A stretch of 59,529 nt of DNA, counting the filler. It is 6 parts of 6 records of this genome, joined end to end, with 100 filler letters (N's around TTAATTAATTAA, not from the genome) between each part and the next. Parts side by side here need not be neighbours in the genome. Positions count along the whole stretch, not along the records: positions 29,417 to 39,413 come from SRR31156797_53674; 5 more parts are not named here. One strand, 5' to 3'. This document shows positions 20,783 to 34,037 of the stretch, piece by piece. Positions within the stretch are counted from its first letter, which is position 1. Every line of letters begins with the position of its first letter. The notes beneath the pieces were generated by a model. That model was not told where the DNA came from, did no database searches, and was given only the letters and a program-made list of their open reading frames with translations. The translations under genes and the position numbers were made by a program.

Positions 20783-20882
20783 NNNNNNNNNNNNNNNNNN
20801 NNNNNNNNNNNNNNNNNNNNNNNNNNTTAATTAATTAANNNNNNNNNNNNNNNNNNNNNNNNNNNNNNNNNNNNNNNNNNNN
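20783..20882. other. Artificial contig linker
   Basis: N44-TTAATTAATTAA-N44; GC content and codon style change across it. Confidence 0.98.
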
Positions 20883-23800
20883 GTTATTTGCCTTGTACCA
20901 GAAGTCTACTTGCGCGTTCATACTTCGTCGCTCCAAGGCCGTCAGGTGGTCGCCATAGCAGCAAACATGAAGCGTCACCTGATATTTCACCTTGCCAGCG
21001 ATGTTTACCTTCTGGACCAGATGGGGCCGATAGCCAAGGCGGGAAGGTCTGCGGCTTATAAAAGGCCAATCTTTACTATTAAACACCGTAGATGTCTGTT
21101 CCTTTTCAACGTCATCGGTCAGATAGCGGTGGGCCAGTTGTGCGGCGTACTTGTGATGGTAAGGCAGATTGTCGGCGATCACGGCCTCTTCGAAACGTAG
21201 CAGGGTCGGTCGATTAAGGGGCTCCGGAACCAGCGGTTTCACTCGCAGAGCCGGCTCGCCCAAAAAGATAAAGACCTCGTCGTTCTTGTCCCAGTCTTCG
21301 GGCGCGGCCTGGTCGAGAACGATTGATTGCTCGGATGCAGTCGCGGATTGTATAAATCGCACCCATTGCTCGTTTCCCTTTATCAGAAGAACCAGACGCC
21401 CCAAAAGGGAGTGATCCTCCATGGATATCGGCTGCGAGCTTCTTTTTACGCGGAATTGTTTCTTGTCGTCCAACCAGTGCGGTTGAATAACCGCGTGCAA
21501 CACTGGAAAGAAATCATGCTTCGAATCCGGCAGAAACCACAGCTCATTTGCTTTCCACCCGTTTTGGGCCTCCTCGTCGGATATGCTGATTTTAAGCGTT
21601 ACTTTGCTAAGGTCTTCTGGGGCTGGATTAGAAACCTCTATGGGTTTGCCCGCCAGGAAATGCTTCATCGAATTTTCATCCTCGCAGGCAACCACCGCTA
21701 GGATATCATCCTTTTTATTGAGATCGTCCCATTTACTTTTTTCTACATTGATTTCAACGGCTCCGTTTGTAGGAATGTCTTCTGGAGGGTTGATGCCTGC
21801 AATCCAATATGATGTTAAGCCGTTACCATTTTCTGCCGTAAACTTATCCTGAGCGACGAATTTGTGGTAAAAGGCCAGGTCCGTTCCCGCAAAACCGGTT
21901 CTTCGACGCGACAAGGCGCTGAGTGCGGAACGTTGTCCGGAACGCGGAAGTCTCATCAAAAAGCCCGGGTGTAACGGATGGGGGGCGGGGATGCATTTAA
22001 CGGGCTGCCTGGCGTCCGACGCCGAAGATAGTGGGTTGAAAACTATGTGATGGCGGCACTGCTTGCCTTTGTCGTTTTCCAGGTTACGGATGAAATCCGG
22101 CATCGGCGTTCGATTACGGTGAGGTTCGCGGCCCATGATCCAACGCACCAGCGGTTCGTATCGCGAGATGCGCCGCGCGCCGACCACAAACTCCTGTCCG
22201 GCTTCGTGGGCTAGCGGCCAGAAGCCGTAGGCAGTATCATTGCGAATCGGCCGCTTTTTGAATAGACCGTTTCGCTCTTCCAGAAACAGTTGTAAAGGGA
22301 TTTGATCTTTTTTGGCTTTTTCGGAGGCCCTCAAAGCTGTCCGCATAAAATTGGCGAGTACTTTGCCCTGTTTTTCCAGTTCCGTGTCGTCAACCTTTAT
22401 GCCGCGCACCTCCAGCCATATCTTCAGAAGTTCGCTGCGTTTTAAGCTGTTACCAATGTCGTCTGTACCAATGTCGTCTTTATCGGGCTTGGTTGCGAGC
22501 AATGGAATCAGCGGTCCCGGCAGCACCAGAAGCTTCAGAAATGACGGGCCGATGGAGGTCGCGGGCGATAGATCGCCGTCCGGTTCTCGGATGCGTACCA
22601 GCAACACCCGGTGGTCCGTTTTATTCCCGGCGGTCAACAGCGCCGGCCAGGGTTGGGCCAGTACCAACTCCGCCAACTGCTCCTGGGCCGCCAGGCGACC
22701 CAACTCGTCGCTGGCGGCAATGTCCAGCGCAAAGCCCATGTATTCCAACAGGTTGAATAATCCGACCGCATAACTCCGGGCAAAAACAGATTTGTCTGAA
22801 TCGGCATTTACCAAGGAGTCGCTCCTGGGCGGCGTGACCAATTCGCCGTTCAGGCGACTCAATGTCGGCTGCCCGTCGCTGAAAATTCCATCCGGAAGCA
22901 ATTCAACGAGGTTTTTGTCCTTATCCTCAGGGTTCAACTGGCTGCGCCCACGCCGGATCAACCGCAACCCCCTGGCCTCCAGGTCTTGCTTCAGAGCATT
23001 GACGACTCGCGTCAATCCGGCGGACTGGGGGACGCTGCGGGCTATCCGCTCGCTTATGATTTCCGTCTCCTCTGTTAACAGCCCTTCTACCTCCTCGTTC
23101 AAGCCTTCCTTTTTGCTATAATCTTCTATCAGGACGCTAAGCCTTCTAGCGGCTAAGCGTGCGTTGTTGATAAAGATGGTGTCTAATTGATGAGCGTTAT
23201 CTTCTGGTTTGGTGTGTAAATAACCTGACAACTCTTTGACCAAGTCTGTTAATTCCGATGAAGGGGTCTTCTCTTCATCTTCAGGCCAAAATTTACCCAC
23301 CGCCTTTTTAAAATCGTCAAAATCAATCAGTTCCTTGTAACTTTTCATGATTCCATCATTACTGATCAGGCCACTTAACTCAGAAGAGTCGATCTTCTGA
23401 GGCAGCTCAGCCCCCAGCAAAATGTAAGTTGCGAGCAGCCGCATCTGGCGGATCTGCTTCAATGCGTCCTCAGCGTTTTTTGTCAGGCGCCGGGAGATGG
23501 GTGAGCGGTAGTGTCGCTCCACGGCGTCGAACCAGCTCTGCATTGCCGACACGAGATCCGCAGTCGGCGTTTCACCGTCCTGATTGGAAATGAACAGTTC
23601 ATTGGCAAGATCGAACCTGTGAAGCAAGGCCCCGCTGACGCTGCGCAAAGCTTCCTGTGTACGTATATTCGCCTGCATTTGTTTGTATTCGTCCGGATCG
23701 TCGCGAACTTCTGCGGTGCGCACGTCCAGTGCGCGGATACGCCGGATCAGGTCCATCAGGTCATCAAGCCTGTCATCCAGGACATCAACTTCAGGAGGCA

Positions 23801-26800
23801 TCGGGCCGGCTGAGGCTTGGGCGTCCGAACTGCCAACAAACAGGCCTAATGTATCTTGCACGGTTTTGCGGCTGAAAACAAAGTCCGCTGCTACGGGGTT
23901 TTGGTCCGCCGCGTAGACGTAGTAAGGCAGGATAGCTTTTTTATCAAGATTTATCGGTGTATCCTTCCACGGTATCTCGGATAATTCCTTGCGCGGGGGA
24001 ATAACCCAAAGTTCGTTGTTGTACAGATCCCGTACCAGACCTCGGTACTCCTCTTCGGGCAGCAACTCGCTGGTGGTACGATAGATCGCCCGATGTTCGT
24101 CCGCATCCTGAACAACCAGTTCGAAACCGCCGTCGATGCCGTCCGTCGGGCCGCCTTCATGCCATTCGAATGCAATGCCGCGCTTTTTTCCGACACTCGA
24201 TTTACGCGCGCCGAAGTCTGTTTTTTGCAACCAGTCGGTTGGGTCGGTCTTGTCGCCTTCCCGAAGCGTTCGGTTCCAATCATCCACCGGGATTCGTTCC
24301 AATGCGGGCAGCGTTCTACCCGGCGGCAGGCGCGTGCCGGGATCCGGCAGAGCTTTTCTAACCAGATGCACCGGCAGTGGAGCCAGGGCCGCGTCTTCGT
24401 TTTGATCCTTCGGGTCGCGCCGACGAACCAGGCGTGCATAGAGTCGATTACGCCAACCTGCTTCGAACAAACCGTCTTTGTCCGAACCCAATTTCGACGA
24501 ACTGTTGAGTGCAATGCGCCCAATCAACGTTTTATACCGGGTCGTCGGCGCGACCGGAAACTCCATATGCAATACGTCTTCGGCCCTTTGGACGTTGTCT
24601 TCAGAGGGGTCGCCGTTCTCGCTTTCCATCCCATAATATCCCGATGCAGTGACCGGCTCCCGCTCAGCGTAGATTTCGAGCTCCAGGTCCGACATAAACG
24701 CCGGGTCTGTCCGAGGTGCGGATTGTCCCGGATTCTCCTCATCCAGGGCCATCGGAAGAGGCTGGACCCTAAGGGGTGGGTTATTGTCTTTTTTCAGCAG
24801 CAACCCGTCGGCCTGAACCACCAACGCCATGTCGGGCAGCGGCAGAGACGGCGGCGGGATGTGCAGTTTGATCGGGGTTTTCCAATACATGGCCCCACGG
24901 ATGTCGCCGAAGCCTTCTTTATCGTCGTAACGCACCGCCGCAACCCAATAGCGAAGCCGACTGCGGGCGACGTCAAAAGGGATTTGTCGGCCGGGTATAA
25001 GGCCCCCGGCGCCGCCCGGCGCCGCCTCGGCCACGCACAATAGCGGGGGTCCTTCCGGCTGGTGTTGGACAATCAGCTGATCGGTCATCATCAGGCCGTT
25101 GAACATCAGATAGTTGCGTCCGTTGTTCTCCGCATGATCGAAGCAGAGCTGGACATTGTCCGCCGCCAGTTGGGACTCAGCTGCGCCGCCCATTTTATCC
25201 GTCGCATTTGGCGCCTCACCGGCAGTCACAACGGCGCGATAGACTCGGAAATGACTGATGCCGGGAAGGTGCTCGGTGACGAATCCCTGGGTCAATCGAA
25301 CCGGCAGATGGATCCGCAGCACCTGGCTCGCCGGTGCATCTTCCGGCGCCCCCTTGGTTTCCAACGGTATCAGGTGTTGACGTGGATCCAGGTCAAACAT
25401 GACGTTTCGCAGTTGGAAGGGTTTGAATTCGCGCACGCGAACCAGACTCTGGGCCTGCTCCACGCCGTCCGCGGTTTTGATGCTGCGTCGAAACACCTGG
25501 AGTGGATTCGGTTTTTCAAAATCGAGGCGCCAGTTGGTCCCTTCGGTCTCGAAAAACAGGCCAAGCCGCCGGTCCGTCTCCGCATTTTTGTCTTCAAAGC
25601 GGACAAAGATCCGGAAATCATTTAAATCTTGGTATTCCTGCGAGAGTGGAGTGTCCGTGTCCGCACCCGTAATTTTAATCTTCAATGAAATTTCGATCTG
25701 GTCGTCATGTTTGAATTCACCCGGCGTATTTTGATTGTCCCTGAAATCCGATGCCTTCAGTTCATGATTCCATCCAGGATTGGCTTCCGCCAGGGTCTTC
25801 TCATCGCTGGGAAGGTTGATCGGAGCCAAATCTTCAGGTTCGAAGTTGAACTCCATATCCTTACCGTTTTCCTTACGCTTTAGAACTGCCTTGAGCTCAA
25901 GCTCGACCTGGTCGTCTTTTACGGCGGCGCCTAACAGTTCATCGAGATCGGTGCAATTCTGGAGCACAAGCACATGCAACTGGAATAATTTTGTGTTTTC
26001 GCCACCTTCTTTGGCATTGACGACCACCGGCATCCGTCGTCTGCGGGGAAGTGAAATGATATTCGTCCCCTCTAATTCCCCGCTGAGCGTGATGCCGGGA
26101 TTTTCACCGAACAGGGGCGTTTCTCCGACGGCTTCCAGATCCTGCATCATCATGGCGACGATATCCGCGCGGGCGTCTGCAAGACGCTCTGTCTGTTCCG
26201 GATTGACTGCCAGTTTGCGCTGCTGGCGCAACGCTATCCGCCTCAAGCGATCGAATGCCCGCAGGCGTTCGTTCAGTTCCGGGTCGGCGCCTGCCGTATC
26301 ACGCAGTATTTCCTCGGGTGGGCGCCAATCCGCTGATTTGACCGGCAGGTTCCGGGCCTGAGGTCGAAGCAGGATCGGGTTATCTGATTCCCAGCGCGGG
26401 TCGCTCACCAGCTCCGCCGGCGCCGCCCGGCGCAGGGTGTTATGGTCGTCAGCGTCGCTAGCGGCGGCGCCTTCCAGCATCAGCGTCTCGATGCGGGAAA
26501 GCCTTCGGGCGGCCTCCGTGAGGTCATCGGTCGAGGCGTCCGGGGACAAGGCGTCCAGGTTGTACCTGTCCCAGGGCATCATCAGCTCGATGCGCCGCAA
26601 GGTCGGACAGGGCTCGTGTTCAGGGCTATGACAGGGTTTTTCAATGTCCCGTAAGTGCACCATCATTCGGGTTACGGCTCCGCGCAGGATGGAGGCGTCT
26701 TTGAATTCTTCATCACCTTTTTGGATGATTTCGTCCGAATCTTCATTATTTTCATTGATTACCGGCCAGGAACGGGGCAGATTTACATAGTGGTCGAGAT

Positions 26801-29316
26801 TGCCGTGTTTAGGCGCCAGCCATCGGGAGCCGGGCGCAGGGATTAATAAATGCACTGTCCGATTGCCTCGCTCGCGTCGAATGTAGATCCAGTCCTCCGG
26901 AGCAGCCTCGGGCGAGGAAAGCAACATTGAATCGTCGGACAGCGGCGAATCACTGAGGGAGCCCACAGCGGGGGCGGCAAACGGAATGTCGATACGCGGC
27001 CGCGCCGCGATTCCGCGCAGCTGATTGATGCGCTGCTCGATACCGGCGGTGCGTTTCCGGACCCGATTGACTACATGGGGCTGATATTCCATTTCTGCAC
27101 TGAGTCGGCGGTGGAATCCGCATACATTGACGACCACGGAAATGGAGCCCGAAAATCCGATGGCGCCGCTTTCATCGAACCCGACGTTGCCGCGGATGGA
27201 AACGTTGAGACACTGTTCCGGTGCGTATTTTCGCTCCATTACCGGCTTCGGGATTTGAATAGTGCGTTCGAGCACTTTGCGCTCCGAAAGGGTGATGCGT
27301 TTTTTGCGCCAGCGCAATCGCCAGCCCTTGCGTTTGAGAACGCGAATCGTGATAATGATGGGCGGGATGACCACTCTGATCGTCTTTGAGACGAAAGTCA
27401 CGCCGGGCAGGACCAGATATCCTTTCACCCGAAGATCGAGTTCGGAGACGATCAACGCATAGGATGCGACGCCCCGCGCCGAAACCAGGCCCGCGAATTC
27501 TCCAGCCAGGATCAGTAATCCGCGCACCTGGAAGCCGCTGGCGACAAGGTCGAAGTTTTTCTTAAAATCTCCCCTGAAACTCAGGCTGCAACGGTTGAGG
27601 ATGCCGAAGCGACCGGCGGCCAGACGGTATTGCCCTTCTACGCTGACATTGACGCCCAAAAGATTGTCGCGGTAAGAGACCTCTTCCAGGTAAAAGTCCG
27701 CGAGGCTGTCGGACAAATAGACGGACATCCTCACCCGTCCCCGATCGAACAGTTTGGAAAATTGTCCCCCTTTTTCCATAGCCGGGTTGGGGCGGCTTTC
27801 GGCCGTGAGGGCGAAAGTTTGCCTGCGCAGATTGAGCACCGCTGCACTAACCGCGAGGGGACGATTTTTGTTGGCCGGTGAGTTGACGAAAGATTGCTTG
27901 GAGAACAACCAAAGTTTGCCCGCAGCGGTTATCGCAAGGCTGGAATCGAAGGTCAGCAGGGTTTCCAGAAGGAATAACTGGGTGTCTTCACCGCGCTGGG
28001 ATCCGAGCATGGCGCGCATCAGCACCATGGCCTGGGTTCCCGGTTCACGCACGAATCTCCAGGCAAACGGATCGGCCACGTTCAAGGTCGGCAGCTCTTT
28101 TAAAATCTCGTCCGGGTCCGGATCGGCGCTGAAGCCTTTTGGACGGTTGTTAACGGCGATGCCGGCGCCTGCGCTCTTGACGATGACGCTCGGAAACAGC
28201 TCCGCTTCTATGTCGTACTCGGCAAACAACATGACGTTGGGCGCAATGCTGCCGTCCGACTTGACGCCCACGCCAAATTTGATTGCGGCGGTAACCTCGG
28301 GGAAAGAAGGCACTTTCACTGCCGCCTTGACGCCGATAAAGCGCTCGACGTCATCTTTGAACCAGCCGATGATCCCCGCGCAATGGATGGCGTCGCCAAT
28401 GGTAATGTCGATTCCCAACCTGGCGGGGATGCGCAGATCTACGTTGATATCCGGTCCTTCTTTAACAATATCCACGGCCAGAGCGCCCGATTCGATCGCT
28501 ACATCAAGCGTACCCGGATTGCGATATTCAAACACCGCCTCGGTCATGGTCAGTTCGATAAGTTTTCTCGTTCCATCAATAACCCAGTGGATCTCCAACT
28601 CCTTGGCTCGGACTGCGAATTGTCCCTCCAATATTTCGAAATCGATGGCATTTCGTTTTGTGCGCTCCGGGGAATCCTTATCCTCCTTGGGTCGAAATTT
28701 AATGTTGCCTTTTTCCGGAACGTTAAGTTCGAGGAGATTGACATCATCGGCCCGCAATGCATCCTTTTTTTTCAGAGAGTCGAGGCCGCCTGGCGCGGCT
28801 GCGGACTTGGCAAGCCAGGCCGTGAAGCTGGCAAAAATTTTGATATCCCATTTGTTGCTCACCCAGGTCAGATCGGCCCGGAGCTCGTGAATTTTTGCCT
28901 GAAGTACGTCTAACTTCAGGTCCGCGATCCCTTCCGGGTTGGCGAGCTCGATGCTGGTCTCGATGCGCGGCGGCTTTTTTTCGTCGTCCTGGCGCACTGC
29001 CACGGAAACATTGGCGGTGTAATTCTTGAAGCCCGGGACCTGCATGGAGCCGCTGAGTTCGCCGTATGGGATGACGTTGTTGACCACCACGAACCTGCCC
29101 GCGCCTTCACCGCGATCGACCAGATCGATTGTGATGTTATCCGTGGATTCTTCGCCTGCGGTTAGGATTGGTATCTTTGTTTTGCTGCTGCCGGGTATGG
29201 CTCGCCCGGCCAGGCTCAGTCCCTTGGGGCCAATCCGTAGATGGACCGTGCGGCTCGGGTCCGGATTCTCTGCGGACCAGTCCTCGGGATCGAAAGCCTC
29301 CATCTCCAATTTAAAC
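20883..29316 (-). CDS. Giant uncharacterised protein, more than 2,800 aa, truncated at both ends
   Basis: One stop-free frame spans the whole contig. It continues upstream of the ORF-track TTG (..TTT AAA TTG) to the edge. Beta-rich N-terminal part. Confidence 0.85.
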
Positions 29317-29416
29317 NNNNNNNNNNNNNNNNNNNNNNNNNNNNNNNNNNNNNNNNNNNNTTAATTAATTAANNNNNNNNNNNNNNNNNNNNNNNNNNNN
29401 NNNNNNNNNNNNNNNN
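29317..29416. other. Artificial contig linker
   Basis: N44-TTAATTAATTAA-N44. Confidence 0.98.
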
Positions 29417-30031
29417 CACTTCGCGGGCAAAGCCCATTTCGTGGGTGACAACGACCATGGTCATGCCTTCTTTAGCCAAGGCTTTCATGACGTCGAGAAC
29501 CTCGCCGACCATTTCAGGGTCCAGTGCTGAGGTTGGCTCATCAAAGAGCATGACCTTGGGGTCCATTGCTAGAGCACGGGCTATAGCGACGCGCTGCATT
29601 TGGCCGCCGGAGAGTTGGGCCGGGTAGTTGTCTGCCTTGGCATGAATGCCTACTTTGTTAAGTAAGGTCATGGCATTTTCCGCAGATTCTTTTTTACCAC
29701 GTTTACGAACAGATGTTTGGCCTACAGTGACGTTTTCAAGCACGGTCAGATGCGGGAAGAGGTTGAAAGACTGGAAGACCATGCCTACTTCCATGCGTAC
29801 CTTGTTGATGTTGGTCTTGGGATCGAGGACGTCAACGCCATCAATCATTATATGGCCGGAGTTGGCATGTTCCAAACGATTGAGGCATCGAAGGAACGTG
29901 GATTTACCTGACCCTGACGGGCCGATGACAACAACCACTTCGCCCGGATTGATGTGGTAGGACACGTCATGCAAAGCTTGAATTTCATGCGGGACAAAAA
30001 AAGTCTTGTATACGTTTTTGACGTCTATCAT
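29417..30031 (-). CDS. Polar amino-acid ABC transporter ATP-binding protein (GlnQ-like), 3' truncated
   Basis: Start MIDVKNVYK after a [57 protein letters not shown]. Confidence 0.95.
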
Positions 30032-30035
30032 GTTT

Positions 30036-31046
30036 TTAAACCTCCGCTGTCCTTTTTTCAAGATATTGAACAAACATGGACAGAGTGAATGTGATCACGA
30101 GGTACATGATGCCGCACAGAAACCAGAGTTCGTAGGGCATGAGACTGGTGGTGACCGCCTCACGTGTTGCTTTGGTCAGCTCGCGTATTGCGATGACGCC
30201 GAGCAGAGATGAGTCTTTGATCAGACTGATGAACTGACCAGCCAATGGAGGCAGTATGCGTTTGAAGGCTTGGGGCAGGATGATCTTGCGCATAGCAGTC
30301 GCCTTGGTCATTCCGAGAGATCGGGCTGCTTCCATTTGTCCTTTATGGATGGATTGGATCCCTGCACGAACGATTTCGGCTACATAGGCGCCGGCAAAAA
30401 TAGCAAGGGATGCTACTGCAAACCATAGTTCGGGAATTTGGAACAAGTCGGCTTTTGCCAATAGATTGTTGATGATGGTTCCAAGAACAAAGTACCAGAT
30501 CATGATCTGGACAAGCAGGGGAGAACCGCGGATCAATTCAATATATGTAATGGCTCCCCATTTTAGACAGGGGTTACTGGATATTCTGGCAAGGCCGGTG
30601 AACAGGCCGAGAAGAATACCGAGAAAGATGGAAACAAGGCTGACCTCGATGGTCACCAACAGACCATCAAGAAGCAGGCCCATTCTGCCTTCTTCATAGA
30701 CCCCTATGGGATCCCCCATATAAATAGTGTCGCCAACGTCCACGCGAACGTCGGAACCGGGGATGGTGTAATATTCTGATTCGCCTCCGCCTTCGATTAT
30801 GACGACGGAATCATCATCCTTTTGGGTGATGGAGGCGACTTCACCTTCGATTTCGGCTGTTACGTCTATTGTTTCGACGTAGTAAAAATATCTGGGAAGA
30901 CGGTTCCATCTCCAGATGTAATCAGCTTGTTCTGTGGCCCAATAGAAGCCGCCGATGACAACGAAGAGCAGAACAAAGTAGACTGCCTTCCAAAAAGTAT
31001 TTTTGTTGAATCCCTTGGGAGTTCCAACGGTCGCAGTATCTGTCAT
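30036..31046 (-). CDS. Polar amino-acid ABC transporter permease
   Basis: [16 protein letters not shown] loop [30 protein letters not shown]. Start moved to MTDTA because the ORF-track start lies inside a terminator hairpin. Confidence 0.93.
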
Positions 31047-31073
31047 TGATTTACTCGGTAAGGTAAAGAACGG

Positions 31074-31110
31074 AAAAAAGTCCGGGGACCGTGTGTGCAC
31101 GATCCCCGGA
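31074..31110 (-). terminator. Intrinsic terminator or stabiliser hairpin between the binding-protein and permease genes
   Basis: Minus strand TCCGGGGATCGTG-caca-CACGGTCCCCGGA followed by CTTTTTT. Confidence 0.8.
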
Positions 31111-31124
31111 AGATTCTATGAAGT

Positions 31125-31949
31125 CTACTGAACGTCTTTGAGCCACTTGTTGGAACCGAACCACTTATTGTAGATGCGGTCGTAGCGGCCATCGTTCTTC
31201 ATCTGAACGAGGAAGTTGTTGAGCCAGTTCAGGAAGTCGGGGTCACCTTTGTTGATGGCCCAGCCCAGAGGCTCGTAAGTGAAAGGTTCGTTCAAGAATT
31301 TCATGTCAGCGTCTTTACCACGTTGAGCGTAGAAAATGGAGGTCATAGGCAGGTCGTAAACGGTGGCGGTGGCCTTTCCGTTCAGAGCTTCCAGCATGGC
31401 CTGATCTTCCATTTCAAATGATTTGTACTGCGCCTTGGGAAACATGCGTTTCGCAGCCTGTTCACCAGTCGTGCCGAGTTTGGAAGTGATGGTGTATTTG
31501 GGGTTGTTCAGGTCTTTGTATGTCTTGATTTCGTCAGCCCATTTTTTGTTGATCAGAGCGGTCTGCCCCACAACGATATACGGGTTGGCGAAGTTGACTT
31601 TCAGGTTGCGTTCCTGATTGACGGTCATGCCAGAGGCAATGAGGTCATATTTGTTGGACAGGAGGCCGGGGATAATCCCATCCCAAGCCGTGTTGACGAT
31701 GGTCAATTTGACACCCATGGCTTTGGCCATTTCTTTACACATGTCGATGTCGAAACCGACAACCTGCCCTTTTTTGTCAGTCATTTCGAAGGGCATATAG
31801 CCAGCTTCGGTTCCAATGCGCAGTTCGCCGCTTTGGATGACCTTTTCTAGGGTCGATTTTTTGGCAAGATCGATGTCAGCCGCCTGAGCTGATATGGCGG
31901 CGCACAGAAGCAGAGACAGCGCAGCCAGAATGGTAATGATGCGTTTCAT
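31125..31949 (-). CDS. Polar amino-acid ABC transporter substrate-binding protein (SBP family 3)
   Basis: Signal peptide MKRIITILAALSLLLCAAISAQA after GGAGGAAAGG; GYMPFEM, GFDID, WDGIIPGL, SGMTVNQER. Confidence 0.95.
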   Translation of the reverse strand: MKRIITILAALSLLLCAAISAQAADIDLAKKSTLEKVIQSGELRIGTEAGYMPFEMTDKKGQVVGFDIDMCKEMAKAMGVKLTIVNTAWDGIIPGLLSNKYDLIASGMTVNQERNLKVNFANPYIVVGQTALINKKWADEIKTYKDLNNPKYTITSKLGTTGEQAAKRMFPKAQYKSFEMEDQAMLEALNGKATATVYDLPMTSIFYAQRGKDADMKFLNEPFTYEPLGWAINKGDPDFLNWLNNFLVQMKNDGRYDRIYNKWFGSNKWLKDVQ

Positions 31950-31987
31950 CCTTTCCTCCAGTAAAATTGGGGTTATGGTATGCCCAT

Positions 31988-32142
31988 ACCTTGAAATGTC
32001 GTCCGGGTTAAACGACAAGTCAGAGGCTTTGGAGCCTTTGCCAAGGCTGTTGTCCGGGTTAAAACAACGTGCTGTTGGCTTGGGCCCTATGCCTCGTTCT
32101 GTTGTCCGGGTTAAAACAACATGATGAGGTTTTGGGTCCTTG
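31988..32142 (-). ncRNA. Triple tandem stem-loop motif (51-52 nt units) in the 5' leader of the ABC transporter; candidate cis-regulatory RNA
   Basis: Core GTTGTCCGGGTTAAAACAAC at 32049-32068 and 32101-32120, variant TGTCGTCCGGGTTAAACGACA at 31997-32017. Compensatory stem change, conserved loop, and outer stems that differ in sequence but still pair. Confidence 0.65.
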
Positions 32143-32465
32143 ACACCCGCTCAGTGAACAAAATTGTCTATTGAGCGAAATTATTACTTAGCTTTAATAG
32201 TAAGAAATATCAAGAAAGTTTTCATGTTGTTCAGCTATAGTGCCGTTTTCAACGTCATTCATATAGAAGAGGAAATCAGGGCTTTTATCGGTAGAAGAGT
32301 TTTTCAGGTGTTTATAGTGCAACAAAGGTGAGCGTCCGGCGGATTGTTGACAATAGTGTAATAATGCGTCGTCCTTTAGAAAATAATGATTTTAAGAGGG
32401 TTACCCTTGGTTCTGGGTTATGATAACTATATTGACGTTGAATTAATGCGCGAGGGAGATGCTGC

Positions 32466-34037
32466 ATGCCAACAGAAAAGATTTTGCTTGTGGAAGACGA
32501 TGCTGTCGTCCGACTTGATATTCAGGTTGCCTTGGAGCGGGCTGGATATGATATCGTCGGCTACTCCACAAGTGGAGAAAGAGCCATTGAGATGGCAGAA
32601 TCCTTTAATCCTGATCTTGTGCTTATGGATATTCAGCTTGAAGGAGTCATGGATGGCGTTGAAGCCGCAGGGGAGATTCTTCGTCGTTTTGACATTCCGG
32701 TCATTTATTTAACTGTGATGGTCGATGCGGCCTCTTTAAATTGGGCTAAAAATACGGGTCCTTTGGGGTATCTGGTAAAACCAGTTGACCGCAATGAACT
32801 TAAATTAGCGATTGAAGTTGGTCTATACAAACACCAAATGGAACGAGAACTGAAAAAGGCAAGGCGAGAAGCTGAGGCTGCGAATAGGGCCAAGACTTCT
32901 TTTCTGGCTACAGTCAGTCATGAGTTGAGAACACCTATGAATGGTGTACTCGGTATGACCGAATTACTGCTTATGTCCGATATTGATGCTCAATATCGTG
33001 AGAATGTTCAGCTTATTCGAGAATCTTCCATGTCTTTATTGTCTGTATTAAATCAGATTATTGATTACTCCAAAATTGAGGCCAGTTCTCTTCCGGTTCG
33101 AGAGATGGATTTTCGTCTTGAGGACATGGTATCCGGTCTGTTGTCTCAGTATAAACGGACGTCAAAGATTAAAGGCGTTACACTTGAATATTCCATCTCC
33201 CCGGATGTTCCTGGCTGGATTAGAGGTGATACCACCAAAATTAGGCAAATATTGGGCAATCTCATCAACAACGCCGTGAAGTTTACTTCCTCCGGACAGG
33301 TTATGGTGGATGTGTCTCCGCCCAGTAATGGCGATGAAACGTTTGCGACTGATAGAGATGTCGATTTGGCAGTTCAAGTATTGGTTCAGGATACAGGAAT
33401 TGGTATTCCCGCAGAAAAACTGGATGATATTTTTGAGAGTTTCAATCAGGCCGAGGACCATTTGCGTCATGCGACAGGGGGATTGGGTTTAGGTCTCGCT
33501 ATTGTCAGCAGGCTTGTGAGTGTTCTTGGTGGTGTGATCAAATGTTCCAGTGTTGAAGGAAAGGGGAGTATCTTTTCCGTTATTTTGCCCTTTAAAAGGA
33601 GTCGCTATGAAGATCAGGCTCCATCGGCGACCGTTTTGAGTGATCAATCCCCACTCAAGGGGGCGAATGTCCTTGTGGCGGAAGATGATTTGGTCAATCA
33701 GCGATATATTGTCAGATTACTTCAGAAGATGGGGTGCAATGTCCTTTTGGCAGAAAATGGAGCGCAGGCAGTGGATGTACTCAAAGAGCAGGCGTTCGAC
33801 ATCGTTTTCATGGATGTTGAAATGCCTGTTATGAGTGGTATCGAAGCGACTCGACTTATAAGAAAGGTGGATACGGGCTGTTTGGATCCTGATGTTCCTA
33901 TCGTCGCATTGACAGCGCGTGCAATGTGGGGAGACGAGCAACGATGTATTCATGTGGGCATGAATGATTACGTTTCTAAGCCTGTGGATATTGACACCAT
34001 CGCCGCTATCATACAATCAACGCTGAACAATGAGTAA
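32466..34037 (+). CDS. Cytoplasmic hybrid kinase (REC-HisKA-HATPase-REC)
   Basis: ILLVEDD..PDLVLMDI, AKTSFLATVSHELRTPMNG, NLINNAVKFT, GGLGLGL, VLVAEDD..FMDVEMP. Confidence 0.93.
   Translation: MPTEKILLVEDDAVVRLDIQVALERAGYDIVGYSTSGERAIEMAESFNPDLVLMDIQLEGVMDGVEAAGEILRRFDIPVIYLTVMVDAASLNWAKNTGPLGYLVKPVDRNELKLAIEVGLYKHQMERELKKARREAEAANRAKTSFLATVSHELRTPMNGVLGMTELLLMSDIDAQYRENVQLIRESSMSLLSVLNQIIDYSKIEASSLPVREMDFRLEDMVSGLLSQYKRTSKIKGVTLEYSISPDVPGWIRGDTTKIRQILGNLINNAVKFTSSGQVMVDVSPPSNGDETFATDRDVDLAVQVLVQDTGIGIPAEKLDDIFESFNQAEDHLRHATGGLGLGLAIVSRLVSVLGGVIKCSSVEGKGSIFSVILPFKRSRYEDQAPSATVLSDQSPLKGANVLVAEDDLVNQRYIVRLLQKMGCNVLLAENGAQAVDVLKEQAFDIVFMDVEMPVMSGIEATRLIRKVDTGCLDPDVPIVALTARAMWGDEQRCIHVGMNDYVSKPVDIDTIAAIIQSTLNNE

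Follow-up and report, generated by a model that had tools for sequence, protein, structure and literature searches.

An Apparently Undescribed, Genus-Restricted Leader RNA Element with Natural Copy-Number Variants Upstream of an Amino-Acid Importer Operon in Pseudodesulfovibrio

INTRODUCTION

Pairs of leader hairpins with a fixed loop are known as protein targets in the ANTAR sites and the thrS operator. Small repeated leader structures may also bind metabolites directly. For example, guanidine-II (mini-ykkC) is defined in the text of PMC5486947 by an ACGR tetraloop on a G+C-rich helix, in two similar hairpins connected by a linker of mostly at least 13 nt, and control at the translation level is considered probable there. 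Guanidine-III is an H-type pseudoknot formed by a 5′ strand with the loop, as described in the text of PMC5696562. Glutamine riboswitches include 157 doublets and 4 triplets by the count in the text of PMC9481103. According to the text of PMC5473149, only lysine, glycine, and glutamine were directly sensed by known riboswitches as of 2017, and the sole proposed arginine riboswitch was regarded as unvalidated; the question of where riboswitches for the other amino acids might be is raised there.

The locus treated here lies in the window, that is, the whole stretch of DNA analyzed (59,529 nucleotides including filler), for which a triple-tandem structured RNA motif had been proposed in the leader of an amino-acid ABC transporter operon. 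As described below, this leader apparently contains a real, genus-restricted, and so far undescribed cis-regulatory RNA that exists in natural copy-number variants.

THE TRIPLE REPEAT AND ITS SURROUNDINGS

The features of the leader and the operon, in the direction of transcription, are as follows.

32185..32213, minus strand: putative promoter, with a -35 element TTGATA at 32213-32208, a 17-nt spacer, and a -10-like element TAAGTA at 32190-32185
32148..32177, minus strand: 5′ hairpin P0, CGCUCA/UGAGCG
32092..32139, minus strand: unit 1, linker GGACCC, outer stem CCUC/GAGG, inner stem GUUGU/ACAAC
32115-32106, minus strand: unit 1 loop, UUUAACCCGG
32040..32087, minus strand: unit 2, linker GGGCCC, outer stem GCCAA/UUGGC, inner stem GUUGU/ACAAC
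32063-32054, minus strand: unit 2 loop
31989..32036, minus strand: unit 3, linker GGCUCC, outer stem CCU-c-UGA/UCAAGG, inner stem GUCGU/ACGAC
32011-32003, minus strand: unit 3 loop, UUAACCCGG
31977..31985, minus strand: conserved GG..AUA-YC strand, expected to form the 3′ side of the weak basal helix P1 by pairing with a linker
31947..31976, minus strand: C/A-rich spacer, Shine-Dalgarno sequence (GGAGG, 31959-31955), and start codon (ATG, 31949-31947)
31125..31949, minus strand: family-3 solute-binding protein, with 3K4U (Ws0279) nearest to it among solved structures
30036..31100, minus strand: polar amino-acid ABC permease
29369..30031, minus strand: GlnQ-type ABC ATPase, 3′ end cut by a run of N

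The three units occupy 32139-31989 of the minus strand with spacings of 52 and 51 nt, and the last ends at 31989, 40 nt upstream of the ATG at 31949. This arrangement, as given in the original prediction, is borne out by the coordinates of the direct repeats (32099-32140, 32047-32088, and 31996-32037; start-to-start spacing 51 and 52), and the linkers, outer stems, inner stems with their one GUCGU/ACGAC change, and loops are likewise as earlier described. An 11-mer, TTAACCCGGAC, occurs exactly three times in the whole window, always within the units, against 0.01 expected, and three copies of TTAACCCGGAC were reached in none of 100 shuffles. The folding z-score is -3.78 for the 241-nt leader, and -2.24, -0.86, and -2.98 for the individual units.

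The single-contig genome G040, used as a whole-genome stand-in for the window, has the same triple with one substitution in front of a binding protein 100% identical to that of the window. Since G040 has the triple, and diverged triples are found in the genomes G016 and G039 and the metagenome loci L234 and L235, the triple is not an assembly artefact. Some further features of the window may be mentioned. A divergent hybrid histidine kinase/response regulator is encoded at 32466-34037 on the plus strand; its homologues form a cluster of 45 loci, some with the Zn-ribbon gene described below, which supports the orthology of the locus. At 20835-29309 on the minus strand, a 2824-aa open frame lies between N runs. 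In G040, a sugar-nucleotide gene cluster and not this frame follows the ABC operon, so that the window pieces flanking the N runs may not be neighbors.

LEADER ORGANIZATION IN RELATIVES

The orthologue is encoded in 39 of the 42 Pseudodesulfovibrio genomes of the genus set, and inspection of all 39 leaders revealed the element in 34. The triple-tandem motif is real in the window but is not the usual form, as most relatives have one full unit, at the position of unit 3 of the window. The order in the leader is promoter-like element, P0, unit, GG..AUA-YC strand, C/A-rich spacer, and a fixed ribosome-binding region. The unit, about 65 nt in size, consists of a GG-N-CC linker, the outer stem P2, an internal loop, the inner stem P3, and a terminal loop of 8–10 nt with ACCCG(G/A) at its 3′ end. 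The last two loop bases may pair with the first two (U·G or U-A, and by eye C-G in L126); if this pairing is formed, a (Y)(A)ACCC loop is left. AUAYY is present in 32/34 leaders, the loop is 57–67 nt upstream of the ATG across the motif leaders, and the 13 nt up to and including the ATG are identical in all of them.

The element at 32213-32185 was not called by a strict sigma-70 scan. The same promoter-like arrangement is found upstream of the units in 34/34 motif leaders, and because of this conservation the transcript probably starts near 32178, in keeping with the 32170-32180 originally expected. At the other end, no terminator was found after the units. For GGAGG, the predicted probability of being unpaired varies between 0.2 and 1.0 among 37 leaders, in which no conserved anti-Shine-Dalgarno helix was found; such pairing as is predicted for the Shine-Dalgarno sequence is weak and differs between leaders, mostly involving the C/A-rich spacer and, in the window, potentially also the CCUC strand of unit 1. 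The loop shows no bias of reading frame relative to the gene (13, 11, and 10 of the 34 leaders in the three frames), by which a coding origin is ruled out. A leader-peptide attenuator was also rejected: there is no frame bias, no conserved peptide, and no terminator.

COVARIATION OF THE STEMS AND INVARIANCE OF THE LOOP

Several lines of evidence indicate that the inner stem is conserved as RNA structure. At its third pair, 33 leaders show CG (23), UA (5), GC (2), AU (2), and one mismatch. P3 has on average 4.5 consecutive pairs, compared with 2.9 ± 0.17 when the arms are swapped, the best of three loop lengths being taken in both the test and the control. On the gene tree, the two partners of pairs 2, 3, and 4 change together on one branch in 4/4, 7/8, and 7/9 cases, and non-partner columns among these pairs do so in 0–4 of 4–8. 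In an ungapped alignment of 18 hairpins, hand-chosen from the listed hairpins as those with 8-nt loops, 22 cells are double-changed, a number reached in 0/500 shuffles, against 7.6 after shuffling; four pairs covary, and registers slid along the alignment score far lower. The outer stem P2 is also supported, with a duplex energy of -8.9 compared with -5.8 ± 0.4 kcal/mol for swapped arms (36 leaders). The loop ACCCG(G/A), meanwhile, is invariant across genes 73–100% identical. The proposal of a conserved RNA structure with covarying stems and a fixed loop therefore stands on the leaders, the gene tree, and the ungapped alignment alike, and a conserved, covarying secondary structure in the 5′ leader, as placed by the inferred transcript start, is one general feature of riboswitches.

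On the full MAFFT alignment of 28 units, built from sequence alone, RNAalifold gave no consensus pair; the stems, which differ in length, are out of register in it. Folding energy favors the sense over the antisense strand in only 13/37 leaders. Both results speak against the present reading; the strand bias as such is uninformative. In the basal helix P1, the outer pairs are 89% and the inner pairs 61% paired, with almost no double changes, in a model-fitted alignment. A pseudoknot between the loop CC and the linker GG, also suggested originally as possible, is not supported, as in five of 34 leaders the linker GG is missing and the loop is unchanged. More likely, the linker pairs with the downstream GG-AUA-YC strand rather than with the loop; in four of the five GG-less leaders, by eye, A-U replaces G-C in P1.

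DISTRIBUTION, GENE EXCHANGE, AND COPY NUMBER

With covariance models, the element was detected once per genome in five single-contig genomes, at the importer locus only. Model R1 matched four of 151 genomes of the family, all Pseudodesulfovibrio and all at the importer locus, and the element is confined to one genus and one operon in this search of the family. Model R3 matched 18 of 150 genomes of the class, 15 at the importer locus; its five remaining matches are without the hairpin or inside reading frames. Weak matches were obtained in four of 150 genomes from another Desulfobacterota group, the loop being absent, and a covariance search of 100 further loci gave no element beyond the importer locus. 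These searches scored 34 candidates per genome, a depth at which weak remote relatives can be missed. A hairpin model gave further matches in 41 genomes, of which 31 were fetched; among these, the about 24 listed lay mostly in reading frames (often as V-Y-P-D codons) or antisense to genes, or were a terminator. A loose pattern search of five genomes yielded background only. A second locus or regulon was accordingly rejected, with no convincing other site among the genomes searched, and so was a REP-like dispersed repeat: there is one locus per genome, no intergenic spread in either orientation, and the other matches are weak and mostly within reading frames, which agrees with the original expectation. 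In the genomes searched, the element is genus-restricted and single-locus.

Of the five orthologous leaders without the element, three have a Zn-ribbon gene instead, one has an apparent remnant by eye, and one, still with the promoter, is eroded. In L154 (genome G042), the promoter-like element and the ribosome-binding region are kept and both the loop and the Zn-ribbon gene are absent, possibly a natural loss of the element. An orthologue is present in 95 genomes of the family, and in 40 fetched from outside the genus the Zn-ribbon gene was found in 40/40 and a hairpin near the start codon in 0/40. Among the 42 genus genomes searched, the Zn-ribbon gene is convincing only in three genomes without the motif; three further matches (E 0.0008–0.006) are within long frames. 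Probably, the swap between the Zn-ribbon gene and the element happened once, and it should therefore be taken as one event, not as a statistic.

The Zn-ribbon gene itself is the head of the operon in many Desulfobacterota and mutually exclusive with the RNA motif. It encodes an unannotated, conserved protein of about 50–60 aa with two CxxC pairs and an LTEGKY-like C-terminus (e.g., L155:3759-3920, minus strand; L014:2801-2965, plus strand; L158-L197). The protein matched no Pfam family at cut-off, and its Atlas neighbors are unnamed; the swap with the element is the first lead on this gene.

Copy number varies within the genus and its metagenome relatives. Whole-unit triples are found in L102-L104, L234, and L235. 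In L105, the inner hairpin P3 is duplicated side by side inside P2, and in seven relatives (L106, L108, L109, L005, L150, L239, and L244) a second ACCCG loop is carried by P0, 49–59 nt upstream of the main loop. In the triples, P1 strands are eroded (e.g., L104 and L234), yet no loop has been lost. The working module may accordingly be the loop hairpin, of which more copies are useful and not required. Loop spacings across relatives are 20, 49, 50, 54, 56, and 59 nt and are not in helical phase.

Similar-looking leader hairpins precede Desulfobacterales homologues (L027, L046, L049, and L037-L039). They are not kept across the group and gave no R1 score where tested. L037, L038, L039, L034, L027, L046, and L049 are Zn-ribbon-less homologues with pyrimidine-rich leader loops, doubled in L037, and a relationship of these hairpins to the motif is a weak lead. 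Distant Peptostreptococcus homologues (L063, L064, L066, L067, and L069) have tandem leader repeats that look by eye like T-box antiterminator/terminator modules.

THE LIKELY LIGAND

Among solved structures, the binding protein is closest to 3K4U (E 1.9e-92) and then to AncCDT-1 (E 4e-79). In the text of bioRxiv 10.1101/157495, Ws0279 (3K4U) is described as lysine-binding, and the ligands of AncCDT-1 as arginine, ornithine, histidine, and lysine. At the sites of Asp19 and Gln128 of AncCDT-1, which the same text names, the alignments give the binding protein Glu and Lys, as in Ws0279; the Glu/Lys pair shared with Ws0279 leans toward lysine as the presumable substrate. Arginine-deiminase-family genes beside the homologues (23/215 loci, which are partly redundant) lean toward arginine-related compounds. 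At L014:1979-2752 (plus strand), for example, the operon is directly preceded by a gene of the dimethylargininase/arginine-deiminase family, and the same arrangement is seen in Desulfomicrobium-titled and some other loci. The L-box riboswitch was found in 0/5 genomes with the 182-position model RF00168, for which the control matched in 4/14; this absence in five genomes agrees with the text of PMC545781. The element precedes one operon in one genus, and therefore no second gene is available to confirm the ligand.

POSSIBLE MODES OF REGULATION

Tentatively, and at a little under an even chance, the repeats may be read as a translation-level riboswitch for a cationic amino acid, most likely lysine, or else arginine. 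The loop would form the binding pocket, and the ligand would stabilize the closing of the weak basal helix P1, which would change the balance among short, mutually competing pairings in the region of the Shine-Dalgarno sequence and its C/A-rich spacer. Two or more loops would sharpen the response, either by loop-loop contact in the style of guanidine-II or by independent action as in tandem glutamine aptamers. Control at the translation level is the more likely because no terminator follows the units, and intramolecular loop-loop pairing is not required because most leaders have one loop. The small number of conserved nucleotides, mostly in one loop, speaks against a riboswitch and also fits a protein site, and the shortness of P1, its poor covariation support, and its erosion in some triples speak against the switch model, as do the lack of a terminator and of a conserved anti-Shine-Dalgarno helix and the restriction to one operon. 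A more far-reaching version is less likely than not, though it deserves mention: a very small new riboswitch class, whose modular hairpin loop would bind arginine or lysine, may have arisen within the genus, displaced the Zn-ribbon gene, and multiplied several times independently, tuning cooperativity.

The main rival, which has a sizeable minority share of the probability, is that a multimeric RNA-binding protein recognizes the hairpin loop and thereby controls translation or stability of the importer mRNA, the copies making the leader multivalent. Conservation is indeed concentrated in the exposed loop and two adjacent pairs, and stem length and spacing vary; the loop hairpin alone is duplicated in L105 and recurs in P0; the triples lose P1 strands and yet keep every loop; and the replacement of the Zn-ribbon gene, which itself precedes 40/40 fetched orthologues of other genera, points to a changed regulatory input. 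On the other hand, no candidate protein was found at the locus, and the search of motif-bearing genomes yielded no Zn-ribbon gene. A regulatory protein could have a single target in each genome, but the gene for such a protein is usually next to that target. The loop also lacks the hallmark of ANTAR sites, a hexaloop with A1 and G4, and that of CsrA sites, as GGA is changed to GAA in several copies. Should a protein nevertheless be the reader, the element would point to an unknown RNA-binding regulator in sulfate reducers. That the hairpins are constitutive stabilizers, processing signals, or ribosome standby structures without any input is improbable. The lack of a clear expression platform fits such a role, and covariation by itself shows structure only; an invariant loop, however, is unneeded for it across genes 73–100% identical, and extra copies with the same loop have been gained repeatedly.

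It is somewhat more improbable that the importer is regulated by a trans-acting RNA (an sRNA or a tRNA) that forms a kissing contact with the loop and has a second target in the C/A-rich spacer. Leaders of sRNA-controlled amino-acid transporters feature a C/A-rich stretch upstream of the Shine-Dalgarno sequence, as this one does, and the exposed, invariant, C-rich loop often starts with a YUNR-like run; the GUGU loop variants, however, are without YUNR, and T-box features were not detected. Three DNA operators for a transcription factor are least to be expected, with only a slight chance. The units are imperfect inverted repeats, and covariation may be mimicked by operators that are symmetric; the spacing in the window is about five turns, and the two strands fold equally well. 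But the arms vary freely, even between copies in the same genome, around a fixed non-palindromic middle; the sites are far downstream of the promoter-like element; and they do not resemble the LysX palindrome as given in the text of PMC545781. The phasing about five turns apart that was once considered fails on the spacings of 20 to 59 nt across relatives, which are out of phase.

If the riboswitch reading is true, the element would enlarge the very small set of known amino-acid riboswitches, and in its more far-reaching version it would be a riboswitch close to its birth, with natural one-, two-, and three-copy versions. Few ligands come into question, the unit measures about 65 nt, and more than 30 natural variants exist in single, double, and triple forms, so that one probing experiment can put the reading to the test.

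COMPARISON WITH DESCRIBED SYSTEMS

The element matches no Rfam family: an Rfam 15 scan of window positions 31000-33500 gave two matches (E 7 and 8.3), both outside the units, and a scan of 13 homologous loci gave four (E 2.5–8.5), none in a leader. The motif was not found described in the literature searched, which left aside subscription papers and survey supplements that could list it; the texts of PMC11109978 and bioRxiv 10.64898/2026.10.21.760802, figures and supplements aside, name no such motif.

The lysine L-box probably resembles the element in its type of ligand and in its target (lysine import), but its model RF00168 has 182 positions, compared with the unit of about 65 nt. Tandem glutamine-I (glnA) and glycine riboswitches share the amino-acid context and the existence of doublets and triplets, whereas the present element has neither their three-stem junction nor a shared consensus, and no Rfam match at E ≤ 10. 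The livJ, trpB, and gcsH motifs, as described in the text of PMC11109978, are also rare, lineage-restricted leaders and candidate amino-acid riboswitches; they differ in taxa, genes, and structures, a distinction drawn from description only. Unlike guanidine-III, the element gives no support for a pseudoknot between a 5′ strand and the loop, the linker GG being lost in 5/34 leaders without change in the loop. ANTAR sites and the thrS operator resemble it in their repeated leader hairpins with a fixed loop, but the loop sequence here fits the consensus of neither, there is no overlap with a terminator, and no cognate protein is encoded beside the operon. Guanidine-II differs in its ACGR tetraloop, as opposed to a loop of 8–10 nt with a U-A closing pair; the present element has additional P2 and P1 helices and precedes an amino-acid importer, and two linked hairpins are not its general form, as most of the 34 leaders have one loop and the hairpins of L105 are adjacent. 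In outline, nevertheless, guanidine-II is the system that the element works most like: it is built of small hairpins in which the loop and adjacent pairs are conserved, the loop ends in C-G-purine, and the hairpins are repeated before a transporter gene.
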